Shown here one piece after another: positions 12,034 through 52,228 of a stretch of 55,105 nt of DNA. This DNA is from Candidatus Calditenuaceae archaeon JGI OTU-1 (GTDB taxonomy: Archaea > Thermoproteota > Nitrososphaeria_A > Caldarchaeales > Calditenuaceae). The notes below the pieces were generated by a model, which made no database searches, was not told where the DNA came from, and saw nothing but the letters and a program-made list of their open reading frames with translations. The stretch spans positions 1,582 to 56,686 of the forward strand of contig AWOE01000005.1 in the NCBI GenBank assembly GCA_000494145.1, written 5' to 3'. The position numbers and the translations under genes were made by a program. Every line of letters begins with the position of its first letter. Position 1 is the stretch's first letter.

Positions 12034-12272
12034 CCGTCATTGGGAAGAGCACGTGACACATAGCCCGCACCGCGGACACCGGTGGGCTCTCTCGGGAAGC
12101 TCCGCATGGCAACGGGGGCACTCGTTATCGAGCGAGGTCGCCGAGAGCATGGCCAATCCTGCCCATCATAACCGTTGACTGCTTATAAGTGTTCACCGTC
12201 CGGTCGGATTCGACCCCTAGCAAAGACTCACCCTCATAAGCAGCGGATCCCCAGCCATCCCAGAGAAAGGAA

Positions 12273-14258: not shown

Positions 14259-14366
14259 GCGGGGTCCCGCGTGTTCCTCGGCGAGGTTCCGAGTAATACC
14301 GTGCCCATCATCGCAGCTGCCGGCCAGCCACGCTGATCATATTACGGACTCGTGGCTCCCTCGACG

Positions 14367-15485
14367 ATGAACGAGCTGGAAAGGCTTGCCGCGAGCAAAG
14401 CCAGGAGGGCCATAATGCTGGACAAAGCCGGGTCGAAGGCCGAGGCCGTCAAGGCCTATCGCGAGGTCATCGGGCTCCTGGTGAAGCTGGTGGAGCTGAC
14501 GGACAGCCCGGTGAACAGGGAGGTCTACAAGGAGAGGATAGCTGCCTACTCGAGGAGGCTGAGGGAGCTCCAAGAGGACGGCGACGGTAGGGGCCCGCAG
14601 CCCGAGGACCTTTACACGAGGGAGAAGGAAGAGAAGGCGACGACTGCCCTGGATTCGAGACCTCCGGTCAGGTGGGACGACGTCGTGGGCCTTGAACCGG
14701 TGAAGGAGGTCCTGAAGGAGAGCATCATCTACCCGTGCAAGAGGCCCGAGTTCTACCCGTTGGGCTGGCCAACCGGGATCCTCCTCTTCGGTCCTCCCGG
14801 ATGCGGTAAGACGTTGCTGGTGGCTGCGACCGCGAACGAAGCCGACGCGAAGCTCCACGTGATCGATGCCGCTAGGATAATGTCGAAGTGGCTCGGCGAG
14901 AGCGAGAAGAATCTCCAGCGGATCTTCAGCACAGCGCGTACCGAGGCCCTTTCGGGAAGACCGGTGATCGTCTTCATCGACGAGGTCGACTGGCTCACGG
15001 CCCACCGTCAGGTCGAGGTGGGAGGAGAGGCGAGGGTCAGGAACCAGCTGCTCTCGGAGATGGACGGGATACTGACGAAGTTCTCGAGGTCTTTCCTCTT
15101 CCTGATGGCAGCCACCAACAAGCCCTGGCTCCTCGACGAGCCCTTCATCAGGAGGTTCCAGAAGCGCATCTACATACCTCCACCAGGACCCGATGAGAGG
15201 AAAAGGATACTGGAGCACTACCTCGCAAAGCTCAACACCTCGAGGGATCTCGACGTCGCGAGGATCGCTGAGGAGATGGAGGGCTACTCGCCCCACGACA
15301 TCTTCTCGGTCTGTCTCGACGTGCAGCTGGAGGCCGTGAAGAGGATGTTCGAGGAGGGGCTTGAGGAGCCGCCGGAGATAACGACCCAGGACATCAGGAG
15401 GGCGATGGCGAGGAGGAGACCAACGGTAAGCAGGGAGAGCGTCAAAATGTTCGAGGATTGGAACAGGCGGTTCGGAGCCTCCTGA
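14367..15485 (+). CDS. cdvC: Vps4-like AAA ATPase CdvC (MIT domain + AAA)
   Basis: N-terminal MIT-like helices (KARRAIMLDKAGSKAEAVKAYREVIGLL), Walker A GPPGCGKT, Walker B IVFIDEVD, and SRH. I chose ATG 14367 because the TATA-like CATATTA (14338-14344) lies 22 nt upstream of it. The ORF-track start is GTG 14352. Confidence 0.85.
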   Translation: MNELERLAASKARRAIMLDKAGSKAEAVKAYREVIGLLVKLVELTDSPVNREVYKERIAAYSRRLRELQEDGDGRGPQPEDLYTREKEEKATTALDSRPPVRWDDVVGLEPVKEVLKESIIYPCKRPEFYPLGWPTGILLFGPPGCGKTLLVAATANEADAKLHVIDAARIMSKWLGESEKNLQRIFSTARTEALSGRPVIVFIDEVDWLTAHRQVEVGGEARVRNQLLSEMDGILTKFSRSFLFLMAATNKPWLLDEPFIRRFQKRIYIPPPGPDERKRILEHYLAKLNTSRDLDVARIAEEMEGYSPHDIFSVCLDVQLEAVKRMFEEGLEEPPEITTQDIRRAMARRRPTVSRESVKMFEDWNRRFGAS

Positions 15486-15490
15486 AGGCC

Positions 15491-16231
15491 TCACGCGTAC
15501 GATAGCTCTATCAGTCCTTTGTTCGCCAGCGATTCCAGGACCTCCTCCACCTCATCCTCGGTGAGCCCGAGGACCTTCGATAGCTGCTGTATGTCCAGCG
15601 CGCCGGAATCGCCAAGCGAGGAGATCAGCTCGTAGACGGCCTTCTCCCTGTCGGATATGACGGGGACGTCAGGGAAGGACATCCGGACCCTCTCGGCCGC
15701 CAGCCTCTTGGCCATCTCCAGCACCTCCTCGGCCTCCCCGTCGACGTTGAGGTGCTGTGGCTCGGGCGTGGGAACCGCAGCGGACGTCGTGACGACAAGC
15801 GACTCCAAATCTTCAGAGAGTTGGTTCAAGACGACCGAGACGTCAGGTGTGACGGAGCTGAGCTCCCGCGCCACGACCTGGACAACACCCCTCAGGGACG
15901 ACAGGAGGCCCAGGACCTCGGTCAGCTCCATCACCGTCTCGAGCCTGACCTTGACCTGCTCCAGCAGTATCAGCTTGCTCATGATGATTTTGGCGAGCCT
16001 CCGGAGCGCTATGATCTCGTCGGCGTAGATCTTGGCGTGCTCCTCGTCACCTGTGGAGAGGGCCTGCACGCACCTCTCGAAGAGCTCCTTCCCCTTCATC
16101 TCGAGCTCCGAATACTTCTTGTTGAGTTTGGAGATGCTGGCGTTGACCGCTGTGAGGGACCTGTTCAGCTTGACCTCGAGCGATGCGAGCTTCCTCTCGT
16201 TCCTCCCCTGCCGCAGCCGGTCGAACAGCAT
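15491..16231 (-). CDS. cdvB: ESCRT-III homolog CdvB (Snf7-like core + C-terminal winged helix)
   Basis: 246 aa. KELFERCVQALSTGDEEHAKIYADEIIALRRLAKII closely parallels Sulfolobus CdvB as I recall it. The C-terminal wH is LDIQQLSKVLGLTEDEVEEVLESLANKGLIEL. Confidence 0.8.
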   Translation of the reverse strand: MLFDRLRQGRNERKLASLEVKLNRSLTAVNASISKLNKKYSELEMKGKELFERCVQALSTGDEEHAKIYADEIIALRRLAKIIMSKLILLEQVKVRLETVMELTEVLGLLSSLRGVVQVVARELSSVTPDVSVVLNQLSEDLESLVVTTSAAVPTPEPQHLNVDGEAEEVLEMAKRLAAERVRMSFPDVPVISDREKAVYELISSLGDSGALDIQQLSKVLGLTEDEVEEVLESLANKGLIELSYA

Positions 16232-16521: not shown

Positions 16522-17523
16522 ATGTACAGGCTGTTGGTTCTGACGAGGGTCCTTGACCGATACCTCCTGCGGCTGCAGAGGATGGGGAAGGCGGCGCTCT
16601 ACGCCGAGGCGATGGGCGAGGAGGCCGCGATGGTCGGTTCAGCCCTGGCCCTCCATCCGGAGGACGTTGTCTTCCCATCTTACAGGGAGCTGGGAGTCTT
16701 TCTCGTTAGAGGGGTCCCGGTTTCGGAGATACTTGACAGGCAGCTGAACACCGTTGACGACCCGCTGAAGGGCCACGAGTTCGCGGTCTTCGGAGACAGG
16801 AGGTTCAACATCGTCCCGGCCCCTACGCCGGTTTCGACGCAGATACCGATGGCGGTAGGTTACGCTCTGGCCTTCAAGATCAGGGGCGAGAGGAGGCTGG
16901 TGGTCACCTATTTCGGCGACGGAGCGACGTCGAAGGGCGACTTCCATGAGGGCATCAACTTCGCCAGCGTCTTCAAGCCTCCGATAGTCTTCATCTGCAT
17001 GAACAACCAGTACGCGATCTCGACGCACGTCAGCCGTCAGACGGGCTCGGCTACGATAGCGCAGAAGGCAATAGCGTACGGGCTTAGCGGTTACAGGGTC
17101 GACGGAAACGACGTCATCGCGATGTACCTCGTATCGAGGTCGGTCTTCGAGGAGGTAAGGGACGGAGGTGATCCGGTGCTCATCGAGGCGGTCACCTACA
17201 GGCTCGGAGCCCACACGACCAGCGACGACCCGAAGAGGTACAGGTCCGAGGAGGAGGTCCAGCAGTGGATGAAGAAGGACCCCGTGGACAGGATGAGGGC
17301 CTACCTCATCGCTAAGAACGTCATCGGCGAGGAGGACGACAGATCGCTCTGGTCCGAGGTCGAGGCCTTCGTCTCGGCTGAGGTGGAGAGGGCCCTCGCC
17401 AAGCCGGGCCTGGAACCCGAGGTGATATTCGAGGACGTCTACGCGGAGCCGACGCCGCAGCTGAGGGAGCAGATCGAGGAGTTTCGGCAGCAGCTCAGGA
17501 CCGAGAGGGTGATGAGGGGATGA
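16522..17523 (+). CDS. 2-oxoacid dehydrogenase E1 component alpha subunit (TPP-dependent); the true start may be ATG 16431 with a frame problem, see findings
   Basis: 333 aa. YRELGV, TPP motif [17 protein letters not shown] ... NNQYAIS, and [12 protein letters not shown]. Confidence 0.85.
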
Positions 17524-18494
17524 CCGTCCTGACGTTCGCGAAGGCGATCAACGAGGCGCTGAGGTACGAGATGCGCCGTGACGAGCGGGTCGTGGTTCTG
17601 GGGGAGGACGTGGGCGTGAACGGAGGCGTCTTCAGGTGCACGGAGGGCCTCCTCGTCGAGTTCGGTCCGATGAGGGTGATGGACACGCCCCTCTCAGAGT
17701 CGGCGATAATCGGAGTGGCGCTCGGCCTCGCCGCCAACGGCATGAGGCCGGTCGCGGAGATCCAGTTCTCGGACTTCATCTTCGGTGGGTTCGAGCAACT
17801 GGTCTCGAACGTCGCCAAGTTCAGGTACAGGAACGCGGGGCACTTCACAGCTCCGCTCGTCGTCAGGGCTCCGGTAGGTGGAGGTGTGAGGGGAGGGATG
17901 TATCACTCGCAGAGCCCCGAGTCCTACTTCACCAACACCGCAGGTCTCAAGGTGGTGGTGCCCTCCACCCCCTCCGACGCGAAGGGCTTGCTGATCTCCG
18001 CGATAAGGGACGACGACCCCGTCATCTTCTTAGAGCCCAAGCGCCTCTACCACTCCCTCAAGGAGGACGTCCCCGACGGCGAGTACACCGTGCCCATCGG
18101 GAAGGCGAGGTTGGTCAGGGAGGGCGAAGACGTGACGGTCATCACCTACGGCGCCACCGTCTACGACGCCCTGGCCGCCGCCGAGGAGGTGGAGAAGGAG
18201 GGGATCTCGGTGGAGGTCATCGACCTGAGGAGCCTGATCCCCTACGACTGGGAGGCGATCTCGAGGTCCGTCAGGAAGACCGGCAGGCCTGTGATAGTCC
18301 ACGAGGCCCAGAAGACGTCGGGGTTCGGGGCGGAGATCGCCGCAACCATCGCGGAGAGGGAGATCTACAGCCTCGAGGCGCCCGTGATCAGGGTCACCGG
18401 TTACGACACGCCGTACCCGCTGGTCCACGAGCACCTCTATCTCCCCAACAAGGACAGGATAGTCAACGCGATACGGAGATCGGCTGCCCACTGA
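17520..18494 (+). CDS. 2-oxoacid dehydrogenase E1 component beta subunit
   Basis: 324 aa. [18 protein letters not shown] ... [12 protein letters not shown] ... AEIQFSDF ... ATGA overlap with the alpha subunit. Confidence 0.88.
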
Positions 18495-18513: not shown

Positions 18514-19683
18514 ATGCGGATACCGATGCACGAGACCCTGAACGAGGAGGAAGCCCTCCTCCTCAAGACCGCGAGGTCCGTCTCGAAATCTTTCGGCAGG
18601 TCCTACTGGCTCGAGAAGTGGGAGAAGAAGGAGCCGCCCGACGAGCTTTGGGAAGAGATGCGGAGGCAGGGCCTAACGGGTGTAGGCGTTCCGGAGAAGT
18701 ACGGAGGATCCGGGTTCGGGCTGATGGGTGCGGTGCTGACGCAGGAGGCGCTGGCGCTCGAGGGCCTTCCCGTGCTCCAGTTCCTCGTCACCCACTTCAG
18801 CAGGCACATCGTCCTTTCCTCCGGAACCGAGGAGCAGATAAGGAGGTTCGTCACGCCCACCTGCACCGATGGGAAGAGGATGAGCTTCGCGCTGACCGAA
18901 CCGGAGGCCGGCTCCAACACCTGGAGGATCTCGACGCTGGCGAAGAAGGAAAACGACGGTTACGTGATCACGGGCCAGAAGGTCTTCATCAGCGGAGCAA
19001 AAGAGTCGGACCTCATGCTGCTGGTGGCCCGGACCAAGCGCTACGAGGAGGTCGGAGACAAAAGATACGGGATATCCCTCTTCGTCCTCGAGACCTCCGA
19101 CCCCAACATCAAGATGGAGCGGCTCGACATCGACATGAGGGGCCCCGAGTGGCAGTACGCGGTCTACTTCGACTCCGTTCGTGTCCCAGCGGAGAACCTG
19201 ATCGGCAGGGAGGGTGAGGGGTACAAGGCCCTCTTCGAGGGACTGAACGTCGAGAGGTTGCTGATAGCATCGATCGCCGTCGGCCTCGGCGACTTCGCCC
19301 TGAGCAGGGCCGTCGATTACGCCAAGAGCAGGAAGGTCTTCGACGTCCCCATAGGTTCGCATCAGGGACTGCAGTTCCCCATGGCGAAAGCAGCAGCGCA
19401 CCTTGAGGCCGCCCGATCGGTCATCTACAACGCCGCCAGGTTGCACGACCAGTCCGGCAGGGGCCTCGAGCTGGCCAACATGGCGAAGCTCCTCGGTTCA
19501 GAGGCCGGACTTGAGGCGCTCGACGTCGCGATGCAGACCTTCGGCGGCTACGCCTTCGAGCTGGGGACAGACCTCATCAACCTCTACCCGATCCTGAGGC
19601 TCTTCAAGACGGCGCCGGTGACGAACGAGCTGGTGATGAGCTACATCGGAACCCACGTCCTCGGACTGCCCAAGTCCTACTGA
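18514..19683 (+). CDS. acyl-CoA dehydrogenase
   Basis: 389 aa. GVPEKYGGSG, FALTEPEAGSN, KVFISGA, and a C-terminal four-helix domain GGYAFE. Confidence 0.85.
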   Translation: MRIPMHETLNEEEALLLKTARSVSKSFGRSYWLEKWEKKEPPDELWEEMRRQGLTGVGVPEKYGGSGFGLMGAVLTQEALALEGLPVLQFLVTHFSRHIVLSSGTEEQIRRFVTPTCTDGKRMSFALTEPEAGSNTWRISTLAKKENDGYVITGQKVFISGAKESDLMLLVARTKRYEEVGDKRYGISLFVLETSDPNIKMERLDIDMRGPEWQYAVYFDSVRVPAENLIGREGEGYKALFEGLNVERLLIASIAVGLGDFALSRAVDYAKSRKVFDVPIGSHQGLQFPMAKAAAHLEAARSVIYNAARLHDQSGRGLELANMAKLLGSEAGLEALDVAMQTFGGYAFELGTDLINLYPILRLFKTAPVTNELVMSYIGTHVLGLPKSY

Positions 19684-19742
19684 GCGGCTGCTGAAGGTGT
19701 AGAACCCAAATTATATACCGGCTCGTGCATTTCGGTCACGCG

Positions 19743-20900
19743 ATGGGACAAGGCGGCGTCTATGTGCTCGGTGTCGGAGAGATTCCGCCATCGTCTTCTC
19801 TCAGGGACCTCGACTTCAGGGAGATGACATTCGAGGCAGCGGTCCAGGCTTACGCCGACGCGGACATCGATCCCTCCGAGGTCGAGGGGCTCTTCACAGC
19901 GGAGCAGGACTTCGTCGAGGGGATATCGATAGCCGACGAGTACACACCAGATCAGGTGGGGATGAGGTTGAAGTTCAACATGCTCGTCGCCGGCGACTTC
20001 CTCGAGGCCCTCTTCCACGCCTACATGGCCGTCAGGTCCGGGCTTATGGAGGTGGTGGCCGTCGAGTCCCACGCTAGGCCCTCGGAGATCGAGAACTACG
20101 CGGACGTCCTCAGGGCATCCCTCGACCCCCACTGCCTCAGACCGATCCTATCGGATCCGTATGCGATAGCGGGGCTGGACGCCAGAGCCTTCCTCAGCAA
20201 GACGGGGTCCACAACCCACGACCTCTCGCTGGTGGTCGAGAAGAACCTGAGGAACGCCGCGCGATCGGGAGGACCATATGGCGAGGCGCTCTCGGCGGAG
20301 GAAGTCGAGAGGAGCCCCTTCGTCTACGAGCCCCTCAGACGGAGACACGTGGCCCGATTCTCCGATTACGTCGCGGTGGTGGTTCTGGGATCGGAGAGGG
20401 CTGCAAAGGGATCCGACAGGGCGGTGGAGATCGCGTCGATATGGCAGACCGGTGCCACTTCAGGTGCCCACCAGTGGATGAGGAGTTGGGGAGCAATGGA
20501 GTGGGTGAGGGGTGCTTTGGAGAGGGTCGGGCGCGATCTGCATGGCAATCCCGTGAGGTCGTCGGACCTCGTCGAGTTCACCGAGTTCTTCGCACACCAG
20601 GAGCTCCAGTTCCTCTCGGGTTTGCTGGGCTCCGAGGCCGAGGCGCTGCGGATGCTGAGATCGGGCGATCTGGATCTAGGATCGGCGCTGCCCTTCAACC
20701 CCTCAGGCGGGTGCCTGGGCAACGGCAACTCCCTGAACGCCTCGGGCGGAAGGGCCTTCGTCGACGCTGTCAGGCAGCTGAGGGGCGAGGCTGGGAGAGT
20801 GCAGGTGAAGGGCGCGAAGGCCGCCATCGTCGGGTCGCTCCACACGGAGATCTCAGACTCCGGCACGCTGGTATTTCTGAGGACAGGTGATGCGACGTGA
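19743..20900 (+). CDS. thiolase-fold protein, SCP2-thiolase-like, catalytic motifs degenerate (paralog A)
   Basis: About 385 aa. Thiolase-like layout, but VAGDF replaces CxS, TEFF replaces HDCF, and GNGNS replaces GHP. I chose ATG 19743 because the TATA-like TTATATA (19711-19717) lies about 25 nt upstream of it. The ORF-track start is GTG 19725. Confidence 0.7.
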   Translation: MGQGGVYVLGVGEIPPSSSLRDLDFREMTFEAAVQAYADADIDPSEVEGLFTAEQDFVEGISIADEYTPDQVGMRLKFNMLVAGDFLEALFHAYMAVRSGLMEVVAVESHARPSEIENYADVLRASLDPHCLRPILSDPYAIAGLDARAFLSKTGSTTHDLSLVVEKNLRNAARSGGPYGEALSAEEVERSPFVYEPLRRRHVARFSDYVAVVVLGSERAAKGSDRAVEIASIWQTGATSGAHQWMRSWGAMEWVRGALERVGRDLHGNPVRSSDLVEFTEFFAHQELQFLSGLLGSEAEALRMLRSGDLDLGSALPFNPSGGCLGNGNSLNASGGRAFVDAVRQLRGEAGRVQVKGAKAAIVGSLHTEISDSGTLVFLRTGDAT

Positions 20901-22051
20901 GGAGGGTCGCGATAGTGGGTGCCGGCATGACCGACTTCAGGTCGATGCTGCCCCACAGCTCCCCTGAGATGATAAGGGAGGCCGTCAGGAGGTGCCTCGA
21001 CGACGTGGGTTCGCTCTCGATCCGTTACGTGGACGGCGTCCTCTGCGCCTCGGCTCCCGACGCCTTCGACGGATACCACGACAAGGTCTCGATCGCCAAC
21101 GAGGCGGCCTGTGCGATCGGGAAGCCCGTCACGAGGGTCTTCGTGGGAGGGGGAAGCGGGGTCGCGGCTGCCGTCTCGGGATGGTACCACGTCGCCTCCG
21201 GACTCTTCGATACGCTCCTCGTCGTAGCGTGGGAGAAGATGAGCCCTCCGTACCCTCACGCCCAGAAGCTCTTCCAGACGATCTTCGAGCCCGTCGTAGA
21301 GCAGCCGCTCGGGCCGAACCTGATCTGGATATTCGCGCTCGAGATGAGGAGGTACATGGAGGCGCATAACCTGTCGAAGGAGCTCATCGCGGAGGTCGCC
21401 GTGAAGAACAAGGCCAACGCCCTCGACCACCCCCATGCGCAGCTCGGAGCGAGGATCACGGTGGAGGACGTCCTGAAGTCGGAGGTGATGGTCTGGCCGG
21501 TCAACAGGCTGGACATCAGCCCCACATCCGACGGCGCGGTGGCCGTCCTCTTGGCGTCTGAGAACGTGGCGCGGAAGCTCACGGACACACCGGTGTGGAT
21601 CGACGGCGTGGCGACGTGTCTGGACTCGCAGTACTGGACCAACAGGGACCTGGCGTTCCCGTACTACGTCTACCTCGCCGCACAGAAGGCCTACAGGATG
21701 GCGGGGATAACGAACCCGCTTAAGGAGGTCGACGTCTGGGAGCCGTACGACCCGTTCACCTACAAGGAGCTCCACCACCTCGACGGCCTTCTCGGGAAGC
21801 CGGGCTTGGCGCCGAGGTTGCTGAAGGAAGGCCAGCTCCACAGGGACGGGGATCACCCAGCATCGCCCTCCGGTGGTCTTCTCGGCGTAGGGAATCCTAT
21901 CGCCGCTGCAGGGCTGATGAAGGTCGCGGAGCTCTACTGGCAGCTCTCCGAACGGGCGGGGAAGAGGCAGGTGCCCAACGCTTACGTCGGCGTCGCTCAG
22001 GCCTGGGGAGACCTCATGCAGGTCGGGACGGTGGTGGTGTGCAGGAGATGA
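20897..22051 (+). CDS. thiolase-fold protein, SCP2-thiolase-like, catalytic motifs degenerate (paralog B)
   Basis: 384 aa. VAIVGAGMTDF ... PVTRVFVGGGSGVAAAVSGWYHVASG ... WEKM matches the archaeal/SCP2 thiolase scaffold, with Gly at the nucleophile Cys position. YDPF replaces HDCF, and GVGNP replaces GHP. GTGA overlap with paralog A. Confidence 0.75.
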   Translation: MRRVAIVGAGMTDFRSMLPHSSPEMIREAVRRCLDDVGSLSIRYVDGVLCASAPDAFDGYHDKVSIANEAACAIGKPVTRVFVGGGSGVAAAVSGWYHVASGLFDTLLVVAWEKMSPPYPHAQKLFQTIFEPVVEQPLGPNLIWIFALEMRRYMEAHNLSKELIAEVAVKNKANALDHPHAQLGARITVEDVLKSEVMVWPVNRLDISPTSDGAVAVLLASENVARKLTDTPVWIDGVATCLDSQYWTNRDLAFPYYVYLAAQKAYRMAGITNPLKEVDVWEPYDPFTYKELHHLDGLLGKPGLAPRLLKEGQLHRDGDHPASPSGGLLGVGNPIAAAGLMKVAELYWQLSERAGKRQVPNAYVGVAQAWGDLMQVGTVVVCRR

Positions 22052-22698
22052 GCGTGAGGCTAGTTAAGTTCGGTGGCGAGACGCTCGCGGGGCTCGAGGG
22101 CAGGCTGGCTGAGCTCCTCTCGAAAGCTGCAGCCGAGGTCGGCGAGGGGAGGGTAAGCTCGTGGGCTAAGGCCTTGGAGGAGTCGAAGGGGAGGACGGAG
22201 TTCGAGGCGCCGGAGACGCTGGTGGTGACCCCGTACCTCCTCGACTTCAGGTACAGGAGGAGCACGGGGATCGCCCTGACGAGGTTCCTCGAAGGCCTGA
22301 AGGAGGGCAAGTTCTTGGGGACGAGGTGCAGCGGCTGCGGCCGCGTCCTGATACCTCCCAGGACCTTCTGCGAGTGGTGCTTCAGGAGGGTCGACGAGTG
22401 GATCGAGCACAGCGGCGAGGGCGAGGTGGCGACCTACTCCATCGCATACATCGGCACCAACCCGAAGGTGAGGCTCCCGAAGCCCGAGCCGATCGCGGTG
22501 ATCTGGTTCGAGGGGACGAAAGTGGTCAGGCCCAACACCAGGACCGTCGCCCACGCGGCGGGCATACTGCACAGGCTGGGAGAGGTCGAGCCCCAGGAGA
22601 TCATGATAGGGATGAGGGTGAGGCCGGTCTGGAGGCCGGAGGAGGAGAGGGTGGGGAGCATCACCGACGTCCTCTACTTCGCATCGGTCAGGAGGTGA
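22039..22698 (+). CDS. DUF35 protein (Zn-ribbon + OB fold) with ~80-aa N-terminal extension
   Basis: 219 aa. FLEGLKEGKFLGTRCSGCGRVLIPPRTFCEWC (4-Cys ribbon) followed by an OB-fold segment GEGEVATYS ... IGMRV. Alternative starts are ATG 22048 and GTG 22054. Confidence 0.75.
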   Translation: MQEMSVRLVKFGGETLAGLEGRLAELLSKAAAEVGEGRVSSWAKALEESKGRTEFEAPETLVVTPYLLDFRYRRSTGIALTRFLEGLKEGKFLGTRCSGCGRVLIPPRTFCEWCFRRVDEWIEHSGEGEVATYSIAYIGTNPKVRLPKPEPIAVIWFEGTKVVRPNTRTVAHAAGILHRLGEVEPQEIMIGMRVRPVWRPEEERVGSITDVLYFASVRR

Positions 22699-22797
22699 GG
22701 GGAAACGGTCGGCGAGTTCAGGCACTCGATCGAGAACCCCTACGAGTACCCGGCAGGCTTCGCCCTCTCGGTCTTCCTCGAGGGCCTGCGGAAGGGC

Positions 22798-23106
22798 GTG
22801 CTGAAGGGCTCCAGGTGCACCTCTTGCTCGCGGAGCTACATACCGCCCTTCGCTTTCTGCCCGCACTGCGTCGACTCGAAGGTGGAATACGTTGACGTCC
22901 CGGGCGAGGGCAGGGTCGTCACCTGGACGAGGACGAAGGACGGCACGGTCCTCGTGTTCGTGGCCTTTGACGGCCTCGAAGGTGGGATCCTCCACCGTTA
23001 CGTTGCCGGAAGCGATCCGGTTGAGGGCATGAGGGTCAGGCCGAGGTTCAGGGCAGAGCGCGTCGGTTCGATACTCGACATAGAGGGATTCGAGCCTGCA
23101 CGCTAA
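22798..23106 (+). CDS. DUF35 protein, second copy (coordinates run from the first canonical in-frame start; the conserved N-terminal part lies upstream, see findings)
   Basis: 102 aa from GTG 22798. RCTSCSRSYIPPFAFCPHC ribbon plus an OB fold (GEGRVVTWT ... EGMRVRP). The 33 in-frame codons upstream encode the paralogous FALSVFLEGLRKG segment. Confidence 0.65.
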   Translation: MLKGSRCTSCSRSYIPPFAFCPHCVDSKVEYVDVPGEGRVVTWTRTKDGTVLVFVAFDGLEGGILHRYVAGSDPVEGMRVRPRFRAERVGSILDIEGFEPAR

Positions 23107-25109
23107 TCTTTCTCTTTCCGAGCGACCAACTTCTCCCTCAGCTCCCACGCGAACTTCTCGTAGAACTCCAAGACGTCCGCGTTCACGATCGCCTCCCTGT
23201 TGGTCACCGGCCTGCCGTTGAGGATGTTGGAGACCGCTATCTCCACCTTCTTCAGGTTGAAGGTGTACGGGATGTCCGGTGCCTGCACGACGTAGTGCGG
23301 GACGTGCCTCGGCGAGGCCTCCTCCCTCAGGGCCTTCCTGATCCGGTCGATCAGCTCCTCCGTCAGCTCCTGCCCCTCCCTCATCTTCACGAAGAGCACG
23401 ACCTTCGTCTCGCCGTCCACGTCCAGCGATGCCACCAGGCTGTCGGCGACCTCCGGGAACCTCTCGACGACCCTGTAGATCTCGGCGGTTCCGATCCTGA
23501 CACCTGAGACCTTCAGCGTCGCGTCCGACCTCCCGTGTATGACCGCGCTCCTCGTGTCCGAGAAGATGGTGATCCAGTCGCCATGCCTCCAGACGTTCTT
23601 TCCAACCCGGCGGTAAAACTCGAAATAGGTCTCGACGTACTTCCTGTAATCGGGGTCGTTCCAGAAGTAGATGGGCATCGAGGGGGATGGGGCCTCGCAG
23701 ACCAGCTCTCCCTCCCTGTCGTAGACCTCGTTGCCCGATTCGTCATAGGCCTTCACCTTCATCCCGAGGGCCGGCGATTGGAGCTCGCCAGCGTACACGG
23801 GAAGGGTCGGGCTCCCGGCGAGGAAGCAGCCGTTGATGTCGGTCCCTCCGGAGATCGAGTTGAACCAGAGGTCGGACTTGACGTGCTCGTAGACCCACGC
23901 GAAACCGTCGGCCGATAGAGGGGACCCAGTCTGGGATACCTCCCGGAGCTTCCAGAGGTCGAACTCCTTGCCGGGCTCGGCGTTAGCGCCGCGGATGGCA
24001 TAGATGTAGCTGGCGCTGCAACCGAAGACCGTGACGCCTTCCTCCTCCGCTATCCTCCACATCGTCCTCCAGTCGGGGTGGAGCGGGTTGCCGTCGAAGA
24101 GCACGAGCTTCGATCCGACAGCCAGCGAACTTACCATCCAGTTCCACATCATCCAGCTGGGCGAAGTGATGTAGATCAGAGCGTCTTCCCTTTTCAGGTC
24201 GGTGTGCAGGATCAGCTCCTTCAGGTGGTTGACCAGCACGCCCGCGACGCTCTGGACCATGCACTTCGGCTTTCCTGTGGTGCCGGAGGAGAACATGATG
24301 TAGACCGGACTGTTCGACTCGACCTGCTCGAACCTGACGCTCTCCGCCTGTCCCCTTCCGGAGAGGACCTCCGACGCGCTGACGGCCTTCGGTATCTCAG
24401 AGACATCGGCCCTCTCTCTGAACCGCTCGATGACCAGGACGCTTCTCAACGAAGGGATAGAGCCAGCTATCTTAGCCACGTTGGTCCTCAGGTCGTTGAC
24501 CCTCCCTTTGTAGGCGGATTGGTCCACTGTGATCAGGACCTTCGGCTCGAGCTGACCCAACCTGTCGACCACGGCCGTCGGCCCGAGCTCGGTCCCAGTT
24601 GACGACCAGGCGGCACCGAGGCTGGTGGCTGCCAGCATCGCGAAGACGGTCTCCGGGATGTTGGGCATGTAGGAGACGACCCTGTCACCGGGGCCCACCC
24701 CCAGCTCCTTCAGGTACTCCCTGAACCGGGCCACCTCGAGGTGGAGGTCCCGGTAGGTGTACTCCCTCCTGTCGCCGAGCTCGTCCCTGAAGACGATCGC
24801 AGTCCGCTCGTCGCTGTACCTCATCAGGTTCTCAGCGAAGTTCAGGCGCGCTCCTACGAACCACCTAGCACCCGGGAACCTACCGAGGTCGTCGACGACC
24901 TGCTCGTATCCGACCGATGACACCACGTTCGCGAACTCCCAGATGTCGCTCCAAAATGCGGGGATGTCCGAGACCGACCAGTCGTAGAGGTCGAAATAAC
25001 CCGAGAACTCGATCCCTCTCTTCTCTGAGACGAACTCGATGAACCTCATTATGTTGGCGTTCTCCACGTCGTCCTCGCTGGGCGACCAGAGAAGCCTGTG
25101 CTTGGACAT
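23103..25109 (-). CDS. acetoacetyl-CoA synthetase family (AMP-forming)
   Basis: 668 aa. N-terminus LLWSPSEDDVENANIMRFIEFV ... YFDLYDWSVSDIPAFWSDIW is typical of AacS. P-loop FSSGTTGKPK, and later WHGDW, GRSD, LKVSG. Confidence 0.8.
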   Translation of the reverse strand: MSKHRLLWSPSEDDVENANIMRFIEFVSEKRGIEFSGYFDLYDWSVSDIPAFWSDIWEFANVVSSVGYEQVVDDLGRFPGARWFVGARLNFAENLMRYSDERTAIVFRDELGDRREYTYRDLHLEVARFREYLKELGVGPGDRVVSYMPNIPETVFAMLAATSLGAAWSSTGTELGPTAVVDRLGQLEPKVLITVDQSAYKGRVNDLRTNVAKIAGSIPSLRSVLVIERFRERADVSEIPKAVSASEVLSGRGQAESVRFEQVESNSPVYIMFSSGTTGKPKCMVQSVAGVLVNHLKELILHTDLKREDALIYITSPSWMMWNWMVSSLAVGSKLVLFDGNPLHPDWRTMWRIAEEEGVTVFGCSASYIYAIRGANAEPGKEFDLWKLREVSQTGSPLSADGFAWVYEHVKSDLWFNSISGGTDINGCFLAGSPTLPVYAGELQSPALGMKVKAYDESGNEVYDREGELVCEAPSPSMPIYFWNDPDYRKYVETYFEFYRRVGKNVWRHGDWITIFSDTRSAVIHGRSDATLKVSGVRIGTAEIYRVVERFPEVADSLVASLDVDGETKVVLFVKMREGQELTEELIDRIRKALREEASPRHVPHYVVQAPDIPYTFNLKKVEIAVSNILNGRPVTNREAIVNADVLEFYEKFAWELREKLVARKEKD

Positions 25110-25134: not shown

Positions 25135-26517
25135 TTAAGCCTTTCTCCTCCTGCTCCGCCCTCTGCCGGTCCTTCGGGCCCTCAGGGCGACCAGTACGAG
25201 CGCACCTACGAGGACTAGGAAGAACAGCAGCTCCACCGACATGAGGAGGAGCTGTTGGATGTCGGGAGCGCTCTGCGCGGGGGATATGTCCGTCGTTGCG
25301 GTGACCGTCAAGGCGGTGGCAGTTCGGATCTCACCGTCACCGACCTCGACCTCGAAGGCCCTGCTTTCGGCGCCGTGTCCCTCCTCGTCCCTCGCGACGA
25401 CCTTCAGGGTCAATCTGCCGCTGAAGGCGCTCAGGTCCACATCGGCCGAGTACCTGTCCCCGGACACACCCCTCATCGGGACGATGATCCTGTTCCCTCT
25501 GCCGTCGTCGACTACCACCTGCGGTTGACCGGGTTCGATGTCCCTGTCCGCATCGACAACCACCGCCTCGACCCTGACGGTCGATCTACCAGCAACCGAG
25601 AATTTCGCCTCCCTTATCTCCGGCACGAACGTCAAATCGTAGAGCAGGAGCTTCGATGCCGATGGGTCGAGCATGAAAAGCTTCGACGGAGCTGGTGATG
25701 TAATGAGGGTTGCGAACTCCTCCACGACCCGATATTCAACCAAGTCCTCGCCGATGATCCCGACGACCTTAGAGATCTCATCGACGAAAACCACCCTTCC
25801 AGCCTTAGCAGGAAACAGTCTGGTCAGCTCGGAGACCGAATATGGCAGTTTGAGGTCCTTCAGTGAGCCGTCAGCTCGAACGATTCCGATGTAGCCCCTA
25901 GATGAGATGGCAGCCCTGTCCTCAGAAATCGCTAGAACTGATGTTATCTTGTCGTCGTGTTTGTAAACCATTTTGTTCTCGCCGCTCTCTATGTCAAGGA
26001 CGTTCAGCGTTTTCAGGTCGTCCCCGACGTACCAGAAGGACTTGCCGAAAGCGCTTCCCGACCAGGGGGAACCTGCGTACCCGGTCCGAAAAGATCTGAC
26101 GACCTCGTTCTCCGGCCCTATGACTATGATCCTCTGTCCGTCGTGGACGACGAACCCGTCCTCGTAGGCCCATGCGGCCTCGACCCGCATCTCGAATTCG
26201 TTCAGAACCTTCCGCGACACCAGGTCTATCACAACAGCCCTCCGCTGGATCCTCGAGTAGGCGAGGCACCGGTAGCCGGACACGACAACGTCTTCAGGCT
26301 GGAAGCCGAGTTCGATCCTCCAGAGGGATCCTGTCCCGATCTCGTACATGGTCACGGAACGCTCGGCGGGCAAAGCGAGAATCAACGCGTCCGTTCCCGG
26401 CGACGAGATCGACGAAGGGTATGTCCCGAGAGGCGGGTAAGCGAGCTGCTGGGGGTAGATGATTATCGTGGACAGCACCATTAACATCGCCAACGTCGCA
26501 TGGCTCACCATATGCAT
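25135..26517 (-). CDS. hypothetical surface protein (signal/anchor helix, beta-rich ectodomain, Ig-like module, C-terminal TM + Arg-rich tail)
   Basis: 461 aa from ATG 26517 (MHMVSHATLAMLMVLSTIIIY). C-terminal LLLMSVELLFFLVLVGALVLVALRARRTGRGRSRRRKA. No recognisable catalytic motif. The first 47 codons of the ORF-track form look non-coding. Confidence 0.55.
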   Translation of the reverse strand: MHMVSHATLAMLMVLSTIIIYPQQLAYPPLGTYPSSISSPGTDALILALPAERSVTMYEIGTGSLWRIELGFQPEDVVVSGYRCLAYSRIQRRAVVIDLVSRKVLNEFEMRVEAAWAYEDGFVVHDGQRIIVIGPENEVVRSFRTGYAGSPWSGSAFGKSFWYVGDDLKTLNVLDIESGENKMVYKHDDKITSVLAISEDRAAISSRGYIGIVRADGSLKDLKLPYSVSELTRLFPAKAGRVVFVDEISKVVGIIGEDLVEYRVVEEFATLITSPAPSKLFMLDPSASKLLLYDLTFVPEIREAKFSVAGRSTVRVEAVVVDADRDIEPGQPQVVVDDGRGNRIIVPMRGVSGDRYSADVDLSAFSGRLTLKVVARDEEGHGAESRAFEVEVGDGEIRTATALTVTATTDISPAQSAPDIQQLLLMSVELLFFLVLVGALVLVALRARRTGRGRSRRRKA

Positions 26518-26598
26518 CCTGAAGACGTATCGCACCAGAGTGAATGATAAGCGTGTTCTGCTTGCTTCTCCAGAATCGGCGTAGATACAAATACACCT

Positions 26599-27120
26599 GT
26601 GCCGACCTTTACACCTGGTTTGTCGTCCGGAAACAATCTCCGGGTCACCGTCAGGCACGGTGATTTGGAGCTGACTTTTGAGGGCGATGTGGCATCGGTC
26701 ATCAGGTCATTTCATGAGTTCGTTGAGAGGGTCGTGCCGGCATACTCACTGGCTAAGAGCCTTCTCGCCAATGTGACCCTCCATGGGCTGCTGAATTCTG
26801 TAAAGGATTACATAGTATACGACGACTCGCTGGGGTTTGTCTTCAAGCCGACTGCTCATGGTCTCCCAGCACCCGATCAGGTCCTGCTGTTTTTGGCGCT
26901 GAGGAAGGCGGAGCACCTCATGGGGAAGAGGAGCTCGAGCCTGACGAATCTGAGGGAGCTCTCCGAGGGTCTGGGGCTGAAGAGGGGCACGCTGACAGGG
27001 GCTTTAAGCGAGCTGAGGAAGGCCGGGCTCGTCAGACGGCTCGAGAGGGGGGATTACGAGGTCACTCAGATGGGGCTCCAGTACCTCGTTGAGCGGTTCT
27101 CTCCTCGGCAGTCAGGGTGA
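26599..27120 (+). CDS. hypothetical protein, N-terminal beta-hairpin/helix module + C-terminal winged HTH (paralog 1)
   Basis: 173 aa. LRVTVRHGDLELTFEGDVASVIRSFHEFVERV, then the wHTH LRELSEGLGLKRGTLTGALSELRKAGLVRRLERGDYEVT. The start is more likely TTG 26620, about 26 nt downstream of the TATA-like GATACAAATA (26584-26593). Confidence 0.55.
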   Translation: MPTFTPGLSSGNNLRVTVRHGDLELTFEGDVASVIRSFHEFVERVVPAYSLAKSLLANVTLHGLLNSVKDYIVYDDSLGFVFKPTAHGLPAPDQVLLFLALRKAEHLMGKRSSSLTNLRELSEGLGLKRGTLTGALSELRKAGLVRRLERGDYEVTQMGLQYLVERFSPRQSG

Positions 27121-27606: not shown

Positions 27607-28551
27607 ATGGGCGTCAAGCTGGCCGACCTCAACACCCTTGAAAACGGGTGGCTCTTATTTAACAGTATTGCAGAAAGCTGGGTCAAAGAGCTCCTGAGGC
27701 TCCGAACAGAGGAGAACGGCGGTTTCTTGCTGAACAGTTTCGCCAACGATCAATTGGTGGAGGACGACATAGTTCTGCTCGGACAAGTTGAACAGGATGG
27801 GTTCAAGGAGCTGTCGGCGATTCTCCCCGGGACCAAGAGGAGGGTCGTGGCTGTCGACGGCTCGGTCGTCCAGCTCGGGTTCGTTGGAGGCAGGGCGCTC
27901 CTCTCTCTGAAGGCAGCGATCGTCGAGCGGGAAGGCCGATCGTTGAGGGTCAAGGTCGTGGGGCCGCTGCCGAAGCTGGCATGGATCGACGAGAACGCGC
28001 CATCGTCCGATACGGTCGCGCTCCTCGAGCTCAGGCGTTTCGAGGCGATGATCCAGAGGCTGGTGGCGAGGACGGCAGGCGATGCGTTGCTGTTGTTCGA
28101 CATGCCGCTGACGAGGATGGCAGACCTTACGATTTCGGGCGATGGTACAACTGTTGTCGGCATCGCGAAGAACAGCGTCCTCGCGACCCACCTCGGCCGA
28201 TCGCTGGCGAGATCCGGCTCTCTGGCTCTCCTCGCGAGGAGGTTGCCACAGGACCCAATCGTCGGGGCGGAGATCTCGGTGACCGTGGTGCGACTTGCTC
28301 CCAACGGTCTGGCGTTCAGGGCCGACGTGATGCCCGCCGACCGGTGGGTCGAGTCGTTGTCAGACCTGGCCGCGAGCGATGCGCTGATCTCAGGTTACCC
28401 CGAGACCTTGGCGATGGCCCATGCCTTCTCGAGGCACAGCTGGATCGAGGTAGTTGCGTCGAAGGCCGTCCTGGAGAAGAGGCTGGGACTGAAGTTGGTT
28501 GACGAGCTGGACGTGAGGGGAGCGGTTCTTCTGCCCTTCGATGGGAGATGA
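27607..28551 (+). CDS. nurA: NurA-family nuclease
   Basis: 314 aa. RVVAVDGSVV (motif I Asp), ELRRFEAMI (conserved Glu region), ALLLFDMPL (motif III Asp). ATGA overlap with the herA-like gene downstream. Confidence 0.65.
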   Translation: MGVKLADLNTLENGWLLFNSIAESWVKELLRLRTEENGGFLLNSFANDQLVEDDIVLLGQVEQDGFKELSAILPGTKRRVVAVDGSVVQLGFVGGRALLSLKAAIVEREGRSLRVKVVGPLPKLAWIDENAPSSDTVALLELRRFEAMIQRLVARTAGDALLLFDMPLTRMADLTISGDGTTVVGIAKNSVLATHLGRSLARSGSLALLARRLPQDPIVGAEISVTVVRLAPNGLAFRADVMPADRWVESLSDLAASDALISGYPETLAMAHAFSRHSWIEVVASKAVLEKRLGLKLVDELDVRGAVLLPFDGR

Positions 28552-29987
28552 AGGTCTTCAGGAAGTCGGGCGACAAGGTCGAGCTCCTGGCGCTCTCCTG
28601 GGACGCGAGCCTCCGCCTTGGCGACTACCTGGTCGCGGAGGAGGACGGCCGGAGGATTCTGCTCCAGGTGATAGACGTGGAGTACGCCGATGTCCCTGGG
28701 CTGATGGAGGACATTTTGAGGGACCTTTCTGGCAGCGCGTTCGAGGAGGTGGAGAGGCTCGACCCGATGGACGTCTTATCCGTCATTAGGTCCATCAGGG
28801 ACTCGAGGGTTGTCGTGGCGAAGGTCCGGAAGGTCAACAACGCCGAACCCGACGTCCTCTGGCTCCCTTCGAGGTACACTTCCAAGGTCAGGAGGGTGGA
28901 GGTGGCCGAGCTGCTCAGGGAGGTCGTTCCAGTTCCGAAGGTGCCGGTGAAGCTGGGAGAAGGTGTTGTTGTCGACGTGATGAACGTGGAGGGGAGTGTC
29001 ACCTTGATCGTCGGAAGAAAGGAGTCGGGCAAGTCGCACCTCTCGAAGGTCCTCGCGTCTGGCCTCGCAAGGGCGGGGTGCAACGTGGTGGTCCTCGACG
29101 TTAACGGCGAGTACGTCTCCCTCGGAAGGCGGAGGAACGGTGAGCGGAGCGAGGTCTCCGAGCTCATGAAAGTCCTGACGCCCGGGCTGAACTATCAGGT
29201 CCAACTGGCCTCGCTATCGGATGAGGTCCTCGCGGACGTGATGACCTATGCTCTAGGCCTTCCCCAGACGAGCATGAGGGAGCTCCTGAAGCTCTTCAGG
29301 GACCTGCGCAGGAGGAGCGTCCTGAACTTCGCGAACCTCCTCAGGGCCGTCCAATCGGTCCCCATGAACGAGTCGGTCCGAGAGGCGCTGGCTAACAGGT
29401 TGCTGACCCTCGAGTCGACCGGCCTCTTCACCGACGACCATCATGAGGCCGAGGGCGACCAGCTGGAGACGCTCTTCCCGCCGGACAGGGGAGTGCTTGT
29501 CGTCTTCGACATCAGCAAGCTCAGCGCACTCCAGCGGAGGGTCTTCGTCGAGTACCTCCTGAGCAGGTTGAAGGAGCTTCTTCTCAACGACGAGATAGAC
29601 CCGGTTGTCCTCTTCGCGGAGGAGGCACACCTCTACCTCAGGGAGACCTATTGGGAGGACGTGATCACCAGGATGAGGCACATAGGCATCTCGACGGTCT
29701 TGATCACGAACCAGCCAGACTCGATACCTGCACTGATCTACCGTCAGGCCGACAACGTCTTCATGTTCAACATGCGGAACGGCTCTGACATCGACCATCT
29801 GGCGCGGAACCTCGAGATCGATACGGAGACGCTGAGGTCGATGCTGCCTAATCTGCCACAGGGAACGGTGCTGGCATGGGGGAAGGTCGTCGGCAGGTTA
29901 CCAGTGGTCTTCAAGGTGATTGATCCTTACCTGATGACGTTGGGGCGTACGAGGACGAAGCTCGGCAGGATGGTCCAGCACGGCTGA
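28548..29987 (+). CDS. herA: HerA-family hexameric ATPase/helicase (HAS barrel + RecA-like core)
   Basis: 479 aa. N-terminal barrel LRLGDYLVAEEDGRRILLQVIDVEY, Walker A GRKESGKSH, Walker B VVLFAEEAH, and a later ITNQPDSIP ... NVFMFNM segment. Confidence 0.8.
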   Translation: MKVFRKSGDKVELLALSWDASLRLGDYLVAEEDGRRILLQVIDVEYADVPGLMEDILRDLSGSAFEEVERLDPMDVLSVIRSIRDSRVVVAKVRKVNNAEPDVLWLPSRYTSKVRRVEVAELLREVVPVPKVPVKLGEGVVVDVMNVEGSVTLIVGRKESGKSHLSKVLASGLARAGCNVVVLDVNGEYVSLGRRRNGERSEVSELMKVLTPGLNYQVQLASLSDEVLADVMTYALGLPQTSMRELLKLFRDLRRRSVLNFANLLRAVQSVPMNESVREALANRLLTLESTGLFTDDHHEAEGDQLETLFPPDRGVLVVFDISKLSALQRRVFVEYLLSRLKELLLNDEIDPVVLFAEEAHLYLRETYWEDVITRMRHIGISTVLITNQPDSIPALIYRQADNVFMFNMRNGSDIDHLARNLEIDTETLRSMLPNLPQGTVLAWGKVVGRLPVVFKVIDPYLMTLGRTRTKLGRMVQHG

Positions 29988-52165: not shown

Positions 52166-52185
52166 GGGGGCGCAAAGATTTCCGA

Positions 52186-52192
52186 TTTTTTT
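52186..52192 (+). terminator. oligo-T (T7) archaeal-type terminator after the dehydrogenase/hydratase fusion gene
   Basis: TTTTTTT begins 21 nt after the TGA at 52163-52165. No comparable T-run occurs inside neighbouring coding sequence. Confidence 0.55.
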
Positions 52193-52228
52193 GAGGACAG
52201 AAAGGCGTCGATTCCGGAACAGGGCACC

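Follow-up and report, generated by a model that had tools for sequence, protein, structure and literature searches.

A conserved pair of cysteine-less thiolase-fold proteins encoded with two stand-alone DUF35 proteins in archaea and several bacterial groups

We analyzed a 55,105-nt stretch (the window) of a Caldarchaeales (Aigarchaeota) single-cell assembly, Candidatus Calditenuaceae archaeon JGI OTU-1, contig AWOE01000005.1, and found that a set of four consecutive forward-strand genes in it belongs to a widespread gene module. The first two genes encode thiolase-fold proteins without the nucleophilic Cys, namely a fast-evolving subunit A (19743-20900, 385 aa) and a highly conserved subunit B (20897-22051, 384 aa). 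They are followed by two DUF35 genes, D1 (DUF35-1, 22048-22698, 216 aa), with a zinc ribbon, an OB fold and an N-terminal extension, and D2 (DUF35-2, 22705-23106, 133 aa when read from 22705). Sequence comparison across genomes identifies the A-B pair as a conserved family and not as a product of local decay.

To place the catalytic motifs, we aligned A and B in HMMER with structurally solved thiolases (P. furiosus 7YVY, M. thermolithotrophicus 6ESQ, zebrafish SCP2-thiolase 6HSJ and BbsB 7PXP) and also built a joint MAFFT alignment. Where thiolases have the nucleophilic Cys, B has Gly85 (VGGGSG; 81/81 orthologues) and A has Ala89 or a gap (LVAGDF). The HDCF loop reads YDPF in B and TEFF in A, and the GHP loop reads GVGNP in B and GNGNS in A. 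An earlier sequence-only reading of the window had already reported the loss of the three motifs in both proteins, and the two alignment methods put the motifs at the same places. The possibility that the catalytic Cys and His were merely shifted was also checked, and no shifted residue rescues A or B; indeed, no conserved Cys was found anywhere in the A family or in the B family. Both proteins thus lack the residues of a competent SCP2-type or archaeal thiolase (the Cys of CxS, the His/Cys of HDCF and the His of GHP), and the earlier view that neither is a conventional Claisen-condensing or thiolytic enzyme stands.

Both proteins belong to the SCP2/archaeal branch of the thiolase superfamily and show its five-layer fold (Foldseek template-modelling (TM) scores of 0.77-0.90 to 7YVY, 6HSP and 6ESQ). 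In B, Pfam recognizes Thiolase_N and Thiolase_C_1, and the AlphaFold2 model is a complete thiolase fold (predicted local distance difference test (pLDDT) 84, predicted TM score (pTM) 0.89), with TM 0.87-0.90 to true thiolases and best matches among SCP2-type and archaeal enzymes. In A, Pfam detects Thiolase_C_1 only (57.6 bits), and the model is again a complete thiolase fold (pLDDT 86.3, pTM 0.90; TM 0.77-0.86 to SCP2 and archaeal thiolases). The lowest-confidence segments of the models (117-134 and 330-333 in B, 63-81 in A) are strongly conserved loops, which in B include the invariant P120/H121 and the GVGN loop; judging from the models, their ordering probably requires the assembled complex or a bound ligand. 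We found no solved structure of any A or B orthologue. PDB 4YZO (ST0096) was considered as a structure of A and rejected, the Sulfolobaceae A orthologue scoring only 86 bits.

The two subunits, which share 26% identity, are under very different constraint. Over 63 loci from different phyla, mean pairwise identity reaches 71% in B, compared with 49% in D1, 48% in A and 40% in D2, and in one pair of Caldarchaeales genomes B is 86% identical and A 55%. Sixteen positions of B are invariant in the 81 sequences: G84, G85, E113, K114, H121, Y284, D285, P286, F287, H293, H294, N333, P334, Q368, W370 and D372. The replacement motifs are likewise family-wide (GGG[TS]G, YDPF and GVGNP). The same columns of the MAFFT alignment vary in A, with D, S, H or T at the Tyr column and Y, N or H at the Asn column. 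Because the loops of B are invariant while those of A vary, B appears to be constrained like an enzyme and A like a structural partner; from these patterns B is likely the catalytic subunit, and A is probably a non-catalytic structural partner. The description of both subunits as degenerate therefore has to be revised, since B carries an invariant alternative set of motifs and only A looks relaxed.

The signature of B extends beyond its own family. When its nearest full-length relatives are reduced to 50%-identity representatives, 27 of the 108 combine the absence of the Cys with the Tyr and Asn as in B, and only 23 have the canonical Cys/His/His, which suggests a large uncharted clade. All the non-canonical representatives that we scanned fall under uncharacterised "thiolase domain-containing protein" models. 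B itself scores 566.7 bits with the NCBIfam model PRK06065 (NF004721; cut-off 455), which bears only this name. The best NCBIfam model for A is PRK06066 (NF004722), with 280.6 bits, yet this is below the cut-off of 516; proteins at the A position elsewhere reach 353-382 bits. We found no paper characterising the Cys-less pair in the literature and no curated family with an assigned function in NCBIfam, so the expectation that the pair is not yet a characterised family was borne out.

A scan of one genome per species with two B-specific peptides, YDPF[DT]YKE and GVGNPIAAA, gave hits in at least 590 genomes; at the protein level, the clusters that match B number more than 3,000. The archaeal matches come from Bathyarchaeia, Nitrososphaeria, Caldarchaeales, Sulfolobaceae, Acidilobaceae, Aeropyrum and Thermoproteales, from Mars-, Geo-, Geotherm- and Korarchaeota, and from the Asgard archaea (Thor-, Hermod-, Hod- and Promethearchaeota). 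Further matches occur in Deltaproteobacteria, Myxococcota, Actinomycetota, Planctomycetota and Chloroflexota; with these five bacterial phyla or groups, the idea of a specifically archaeal system had to be dropped. Cultivated hosts include Acidianus brierleyi, Stygiolobus, Metallosphaera, Pyrobaculum aerophilum, Vulcanisaeta and Thermocladium.

The four genes behave as one module. Among the 80 loci sampled, 69 have an A-like gene, B and two DUF35 genes in that order; of the remaining 11, four are cut by contig ends, four have overlapping open reading frame (ORF) calls, and three have room for a DUF35 gene but none is present. In the window the stop of A and the start of B overlap by 4 nt (GTGA, 20897-20900), as do the stop of B and the start of D1 (ATGA, 22048-22051), and D2 starts 6 nt past the D1 stop, in good agreement with the translational coupling of thiolase-fold and DUF35 genes that had been proposed. 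The source record also calls the D1 gene from 22048. In addition, two metagenomic proteins, P0357 (731 aa) and P0365 (562 aa), are single chains composed of B, D1 and D2, and such "Rosetta-stone" fusions support a physical association of the subunits. From the conserved order, the overlapping genes and the fusions, we infer that A, B, D1 and D2 associate with one another.

Membership in DUF35 was judged by the Pfam pair zf-ChsH2 (PF12172) and OB_ChsH2_C (PF01796), that is, a four-Cys rubredoxin-like zinc ribbon followed by an OB fold, and both D1 and D2 belong to the family. D1 passes both domain cut-offs (39.2 and 41.4 bits); the ribbon of D2 passes (26.6 bits, cut-off 23.2), and its OB domain scores 21.7 bits, below the cut-off of 27.1. 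The CxxC..CxxC pattern is conserved in both DUF35 families (63 D1 orthologues). The two proteins share 36% identity over the full length of D2. By Pfam, neither carries a MaoC domain, and both are stand-alone zinc-ribbon/OB proteins. The sequence-only reading had assigned an extension of about 80 aa to one DUF35 protein; D1 is indeed about 80 aa longer than D2, but exceeds its own orthologues (median 175 aa) by only about 40 aa.

The start of D2 is unusual in this assembly. The codon at 22705 is ACG, and because it replaces a canonical start, gene callers shorten D2 to 102 aa (the ORF finder begins this rump at 22798). Translated, the 33 codons that follow the D1 stop give the N-terminal helix typical of DUF35, and ATG, GTG and TTG are all missing among them. 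In a near-identical metagenome contig (L007) the codon is ATG and the product has 133 aa, which is therefore the predicted length of the true D2 product. The ACG would reflect either a start-codon polymorphism or an error of single-cell amplification or sequencing. Stop read-through and a D1-D2 fusion were ruled out as explanations, given the ATG of L007 and the relatives with two separate genes.

D2 also connects the module to a known structure. The D2 protein of a Sulfolobaceae locus (L071) matches PDB 3IRB with 172 bits, and that of the Saccharolobus locus is 80% identical to the 3IRB sequence. These matches identify SSO2064 (3IRB), of which the D2 of the window is an orthologue, as the D2 subunit of an A-B-D1-D2 operon, which in Saccharolobus comprises SSO2061-2064. 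SSO2064 gave the first DUF35 crystal structure, its function being left open in 2010, and this old structure now gains a context.

Directly upstream of A in the window lies an acyl-CoA dehydrogenase (ACAD) gene (18514-19683, +) with all three ACAD Pfam domains, and an ACAD is found at this position in all Caldarchaeales relatives and also in Sulfolobaceae. The 59-nt gap between the end of the ACAD gene and the start of A holds the sequence aaattatata (19708-19718, +), about 25 nt before the ATG of A and the sole AT-rich element picked up in the region, which looks like the archaeal TATA box of a near-leaderless transcript. Because of this element, A-B-D1-D2 may have a promoter of its own, apart from the ACAD gene with which a single operon had been suggested. 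In the window ACAD a Glu occupies the helix-G position (LNVER), and the position of MCAD E376 has no Glu; the catalytic Glu is IVD/LCAD-like in the Caldarchaeales ACADs and in one Hodarchaeota neighbour. This was not decisive for considering the window protein an isovaleryl-CoA dehydrogenase (IVD) orthologue, as overall it shows no more than generic similarity and the Glu of other neighbours is the standard one.

Across the 80 sampled loci, counting genes within 9-10 kb of B, the recurrent neighbours are ACAD (21-22 loci), ligases of the ACS and acetoacetate-CoA ligase (AACS) types (11-15), the large (14-17) and small (12) subunits of a B12 acyl-CoA mutase, MeaB (10), adenosyltransferase (8), type II thiolase (11) and enoyl-CoA hydratase (6). 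The acyl-CoA metabolic setting that had been proposed from the ACAD gene is thus a recurrent one. A bona fide AACS gene (23103-25109, -; TIGR01217 783 bits, cut-off 521; NF002937 845 bits) converges with the module in the window. The link to ligases is seen in three independent arrangements elsewhere: AACS-ACAD-A-B-D1-D2 in Ca. Caldarchaeum, A-B-AACS-D1-D2 in Nitrososphaerales, and A-B-D1-D2-ACS in Acidianus brierleyi, where an ACS-type ligase gene overlaps D2 by 4 nt. The in-operon AACS proteins of the first two score 834-947 bits against AACS models. In A. brierleyi (CP029289, locus L091) we also observed, directly after this cluster, a gene for a CitE-like HpcH/HpaI "C-C bond lyase" (11881-12687, -), followed by a four-subunit 2-oxoacid:ferredoxin oxidoreductase.

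Upstream of the ACAD gene the window encodes the alpha (16522-17523, +; Pfam E1_dh, 283.9 bits) and beta (17520-18494, +; Transket_pyr and Transketolase_C) subunits of a 2-oxoacid dehydrogenase E1. No E2 or E3 for this pair was found among the called genes over about 10.9-32 kb of the window. Caldarchaeum relatives keep E1 alpha alone beside the module, on the opposite strand, and in Sulfolobales 2-oxoacid or indolepyruvate:ferredoxin oxidoreductases lie beside it, mirroring the E1 pair. The B12 mutase adjoins the module in Bathyarchaeia and shares the A-B-D1-D2 operon in two Deltaproteobacteria; a split mutase with MeaB and adenosyltransferase stands beside the module, or interleaved with it, in eight Bathyarchaeia loci (L019, L021, L026, L032, L034, L036, L050 and L052) and in the deltaproteobacterial loci L049 and L085. 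Its best PDB match is the 2-hydroxyisobutyryl-CoA mutase HcmA (4R3U, 602 bits), and its specificity residues are Phe/Gln/Ala, the pattern of isobutyryl-CoA mutase, with the Tyr89 column fixed by the Y89F entry 5REQ. Methylmalonyl-CoA mutase and 2-hydroxyisobutyryl-CoA mutase were rejected as assignments, the residues being neither Tyr/Arg nor Ile/Asp.

The deltaproteobacterial locus L049 comprises a thioesterase, a 3-hydroxyacyl-CoA dehydrogenase, a TetR regulator, an ACAD, the mutase and A-B-D1-D2; the cluster encodes no further thiolase, and its gene content points to a TetR-controlled operon. In about 18 Bathyarchaeia loci, canonical HDCF/GHP thiolases are encoded next door, there with a DUF35 gene of their own and divergent to the module. 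Because canonical thiolases often adjoin it, the module is not a simple thiolase replacement. Taken as gene context, these neighbourhoods place the module among genes that metabolise acetoacetate and C4-C6 acyl-CoAs (often branched and derived from amino acids), without naming its reaction. A possible lead on its expression comes from Sulfolobus acidocaldarius, in which saci_2231-2235 (two "acetyl-CoA acetyltransferases", ACAD and ACS) have been reported to be upregulated under nutrient excess and to respond to NZ-amine (PMC11486757); the gene order matches the Saccharolobus locus, and the cluster is a candidate instance of the module only. The "PhaAab" pairs of N. viennensis were considered as instances of the module and rejected, being a thiolase and a DUF35 protein orthologous to Nmar_1631/1630, with no evidence for A or B.

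Complexes of thiolase-fold and DUF35 proteins, and Cys-less thiolase-fold aldolases, are already known. All structurally characterised DUF35 partners bind a thiolase-fold dimer (6ESQ, 6OK1, 7PXP, 9MYR), with one DUF35 per thiolase-fold protomer in the solved complexes (PMC12329534). The closest mechanistic parallels of the module are the steroid side-chain aldolase TcLtp2-ChsH2 (6OK1) and the bile-acid aldolase CtSal-CtShy (9MYR). These enzymes also lack the nucleophilic Cys, with Gly at its position in both CtSal and B; they have Tyr as the first residue of the HDCF-equivalent motif (YDHF and YDCY, against YDPF in B), and an amide or hydroxyl side chain in place of the GHP His. Their DUF35 partner is obligatory, and an ACAD is encoded in the same operon. 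To our knowledge, Ltp2 and Sal are the only Cys-less thiolase-fold enzymes of known chemistry, and both act on steroids, which the substrates of the module, found in archaea and anaerobes, cannot be. Ltp2 and Sal are, moreover, homodimers with one type of DUF35, arranged as an alpha-beta-beta-alpha tetramer, and this DUF35 is a domain of a MaoC hydratase; here there are two thiolase-fold genes and two stand-alone DUF35 genes, with no hydratase attached.

The module shares other features with further systems. Ltp3 and Ltp4 of actinobacterial sterol catabolism are likewise encoded by two adjacent thiolase-like genes, and have been described as retro-aldol lyases of the branched (C24) sterol side chain (PMC10832528). 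The evidence for Ltp3/Ltp4 is genetic only, and the NCBIfam "lipid-transfer protein" models give A and B only 74-153 bits, well short of their cut-offs. The archaeal thiolase/DUF35 complexes resemble the module in belonging to the SCP2/archaeal subfamily (TM 0.88-0.90 for B) and in their operon-encoded DUF35, and the thiolase/HMG-CoA synthase/DUF35 complex (HMG, 3-hydroxy-3-methylglutaryl) also joins two different thiolase-fold proteins; however, the partner there is HMG-CoA synthase and not a second SCP2-type protein, the thiolases are Claisen enzymes with Cys, HDCF and GHP intact, and there is only one type of DUF35. BbsAB (7PXP), PhlABC and MucABC also combine SCP2-type thiolase-fold proteins with a DUF35 subunit, and PhlA and MucA are catalytically altered, but BbsB, PhlC and MucB keep the catalytic Cys, as neither A nor B does. 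TbSLP of Trypanosoma brucei (PDB 5AB4-5AB7) has a thiolase fold with YDCF for HDCF, but is a eukaryotic homomer without DUF35, keeps the Cys of this motif and is only 20-21% identical to B. In type II polyketide synthases, the ketosynthase and the chain-length factor form a heterodimer of paralogues, of which one is catalytic and the other, without the active-site Cys, shapes the substrate tunnel. This pair, compared here from general knowledge, belongs to another branch of the superfamily, depends on acyl carrier protein, keeps the Cys in its active protomer and has no DUF35. What is distinct in the module, as judged from its sequences, is the combination of two unlike Cys-less thiolase-fold protomers with two dedicated stand-alone DUF35 proteins, the invariant Gly / Tyr-Asp-Pro-Phe / Gly-Asn-Pro set, and a distribution centred on archaeal primary metabolism.

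We tentatively propose, at somewhat less than an even chance, that B, working within a heteromeric A-B-D1-D2 complex, cleaves C-C bonds as a lyase of the retro-aldol type that stabilises an enolate and needs no Cys. The four products would form a single complex in which A and B make up a pseudo-symmetric heterodimer, each protomer being capped by its own DUF35 protein (D1 or D2); the identities of A with B and of D1 with D2 given above fit such a duplicated pseudo-symmetric unit. A would shape the dimer and the binding tunnel. B would have lost covalent Cys catalysis and kept a site that stabilises the enolate of an acyl-CoA thioester, with Asn333 in place of the GHP His and Tyr284 in place of the HDCF His. 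Counted along the HMMER alignment, Tyr284 (YDPF) aligns with TcLtp2 Tyr294 (YDHF), the catalytic base of Ltp2, to which CtSal Tyr302 and TbSLP Tyr297 are equivalent (PMC12329534), so that B, unlike A, which has no Tyr, shares with Ltp2 and Sal both the absence of the Cys and a Tyr base in YDxF/Y. As in these enzymes, Tyr284 would act as general base on the 3-hydroxyl of a 3-hydroxyacyl-CoA, and the C2-C3 bond would break by retro-aldol cleavage to give acetyl-CoA (or propionyl-CoA) and a carbonyl compound. As to the substrate, we infer a short or branched (C4-C6) acyl-CoA that would derive from amino-acid 2-oxoacids through the E1 or the ferredoxin oxidoreductase and then the ACAD. An attractive candidate would be a non-oxidisable tertiary alcohol such as HMG-CoA (yielding acetoacetate) or 3-hydroxyisovaleryl-CoA, chemically the closest to the Ltp2 reaction on a tertiary alcohol, and the co-operonic acetoacetate or short-chain CoA ligase could re-activate the released acid. 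Ltp3/Ltp4 would be a partial precedent for this lyase.

Several observations weigh against the proposal. Ltp2 uses Tyr344 as the acid, and CtSal has Gln at this position and uses Tyr302 and Cys304 of its YDCY motif (PMC12329534). In B, Asn333 aligns with Ltp2 Tyr344 and Sal Gln352, and Pro286 takes the place of Sal Cys304; both are invariant, so the acid of either enzyme is missing. The invariant D372, H121 and H293/H294 are candidates only for an alternative acid. TbSLP also has the YDCF motif, with an unclear role (PMC12329534). Furthermore, B is 32% identical to the thiolase 7YVY (TM 0.87-0.90), and only 23-25% identical to Ltp2 and Sal (TM 0.80-0.83); because B is closer to genuine thiolases, the shared Tyr may be convergent. 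In contrast to ChsH2 and Shy, no hydratase is fused to the DUF35 proteins or recurs nearby in the sampled loci. Nor did we see there a recurring aldehyde- or ketone-handling enzyme, or, near the module, the methylcrotonyl-CoA carboxylase and methylglutaconyl-CoA hydratase that a route through HMG-CoA needs, and the neighbouring ACADs are not a single orthologous group. The idea of an aldolase-type C-C lyase, also put forward by the sequence-only reading, therefore keeps the aligned Tyr in its favour, and is held back by the missing acid, the lack of an attached MaoC domain and the nearness to archaeal thiolases.

An alternative is that the module does the work of the thiolase of its pathway by another mechanism, with Cys-independent cleavage of a 3-oxoacyl-CoA. 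Free CoA or water would add directly at the 3-keto group of a short 3-oxoacyl-CoA such as acetoacetyl-CoA, and the resulting hemithioketal or hydrate would split in a retro-aldol-like manner to two acyl-CoAs, or to an acid and acetyl-CoA, the two unlike protomers and two DUF35 proteins supplying the second CoA site. The neighbourhood does resemble a set for beta-oxidation or acetoacetate use, with the module in the thiolase slot in Ca. Caldarchaeum and Nitrososphaerales, the L049 cluster has no other thiolase, and the ACS-type ligase directly after D2 in Sulfolobales could re-activate a released acid. Yet a thiolase-fold enzyme using a ternary complex would be without precedent, hydrolytic cleavage would waste the thioester, canonical Cys thiolases often lie beside the module (in Bathyarchaeia, Asgard archaea and Nitrososphaerales), and a 3-hydroxyacyl-CoA dehydrogenase is near it in only 1 of 80 loci; we consider this explanation unlikely. 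A low probability also attaches to other enolate chemistry at the Tyr/Asn oxyanion site of B, with no C-C cleavage of a hydroxyacyl-CoA: decarboxylation of a (methyl)malonyl-type CoA, hydration or dehydration of an enoyl-CoA, epimerisation or isomerisation. TbSLP, with its YDCF motif, decarboxylates malonyl-CoA slowly (PMC12329534), and the B12 mutase with MeaB and adenosyltransferase adjoins the module in 12-17 loci; but this mutase lacks Tyr89 and Arg207, which bind the carboxylate of methylmalonyl-CoA, so it is not methylmalonyl-CoA mutase, and no carboxylase recurs near the module in the sampled loci. A hydratase role would fill a gap in most clusters of ACAD and module, which have no enoyl-CoA hydratase. 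Crotonase and MaoC hydratases are ubiquitous, however, the window itself encodes a dehydrogenase/hydratase fusion (50210-52165), and no thiolase-fold hydratase or epimerase is known.

The complex might also be non-catalytic, namely a scaffold, as the sequence-only reading had considered, a carrier or sensor of CoA esters, or a regulator organising ACAD, ligase and thiolase. All canonical catalytic residues are gone from A and B, PhlA and MucA are inactive thiolase-fold partners, and DUF35 mediates assembly in the M. thermolithotrophicus complex and in the KT/DUF35/ACR/HCD complex of S. acidocaldarius (bioRxiv 10.1101/2024.07.05.601840); a scaffold would resemble this role of DUF35 in the archaeal thiolase/HMG-CoA synthase and fatty-acid-synthase assemblies. 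Against this, B is most strongly conserved in the loops of the thiolase active site, which do not vary between archaeal and bacterial phyla. The constraint on B also far exceeds that on A, D1 and D2, an enzyme-like pattern, and the module is often found by itself, lacking any constant partner that it could organise. This conservation pattern makes a pure scaffold quite improbable.

Genome annotations routinely label the module as a pair of acetyl-CoA acetyltransferases. When beta-oxidation, butyrate metabolism or carbon fixation is reconstructed for uncultured archaea, the thiolases counted therefore include proteins that cannot be thiolases. That A-B-D1-D2 represents a new class of Cys-independent C-C bond enzyme in the central acyl-CoA metabolism of archaea, either an HMG-CoA-type lyase or a thiolase with free CoA as nucleophile, is a bold reading that we think somewhat unlikely; if either version were true, thousands of archaeal acetyl-CoA acetyltransferase labels would be wrong, including those in Asgard and Bathyarchaeia genomes used for metabolic reconstruction. 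The lyase version would provide a non-orthologous 3-hydroxy-3-methylacyl-CoA lyase, with which archaea and some anaerobic bacteria would degrade branched chains derived from leucine, isovalerate or isoprenoids. It would bring the chemistry of Ltp2 and Sal to small primary metabolites, with another acid/base set and a new heteromeric architecture. The thiolase version would imply a free CoA nucleophile and a ternary complex spread over two unlike protomers. As the module is present in cultivated, genetically tractable Sulfolobales, these ideas are directly testable.

Elsewhere in the window we noted several other genes. A fused 3-hydroxyacyl-CoA dehydrogenase/enoyl-CoA hydratase gene (651 aa, +) lies beside an acyl-CoA synthetase gene (569 aa, -) at 50210-53938, so that canonical enzymes of beta-oxidation are encoded in this genome about 30 kb away from the module. 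At 2302-3123, a 273-aa ORF has AMP-binding_C and, of the AMP-binding domain itself, just the C-terminal third, and looks like a truncated or frame-shifted acyl-CoA synthetase gene. Next to the AACS gene, a 507-aa protein (25135-26658, -) without Pfam match in the source record has a hydrophobic N-terminal region, a C-terminal transmembrane segment and a basic tail, and is possibly a surface or membrane-anchored protein. Further downstream, a NurA-like nuclease and a DUF87 (HerA-type) ATPase are encoded as a pair, a DNA end-resection module (27607-29987). Finally, a Vps4/CdvC-type AAA ATPase gene (14352-16231, +; MIT, AAA and Vps4_C domains) converges with a minus-strand gene for a 246-aa coiled-coil protein, ESCRT-III/CdvB-like in appearance, which suggests that a locus for Cdv cell division directly precedes the acyl-CoA cluster.

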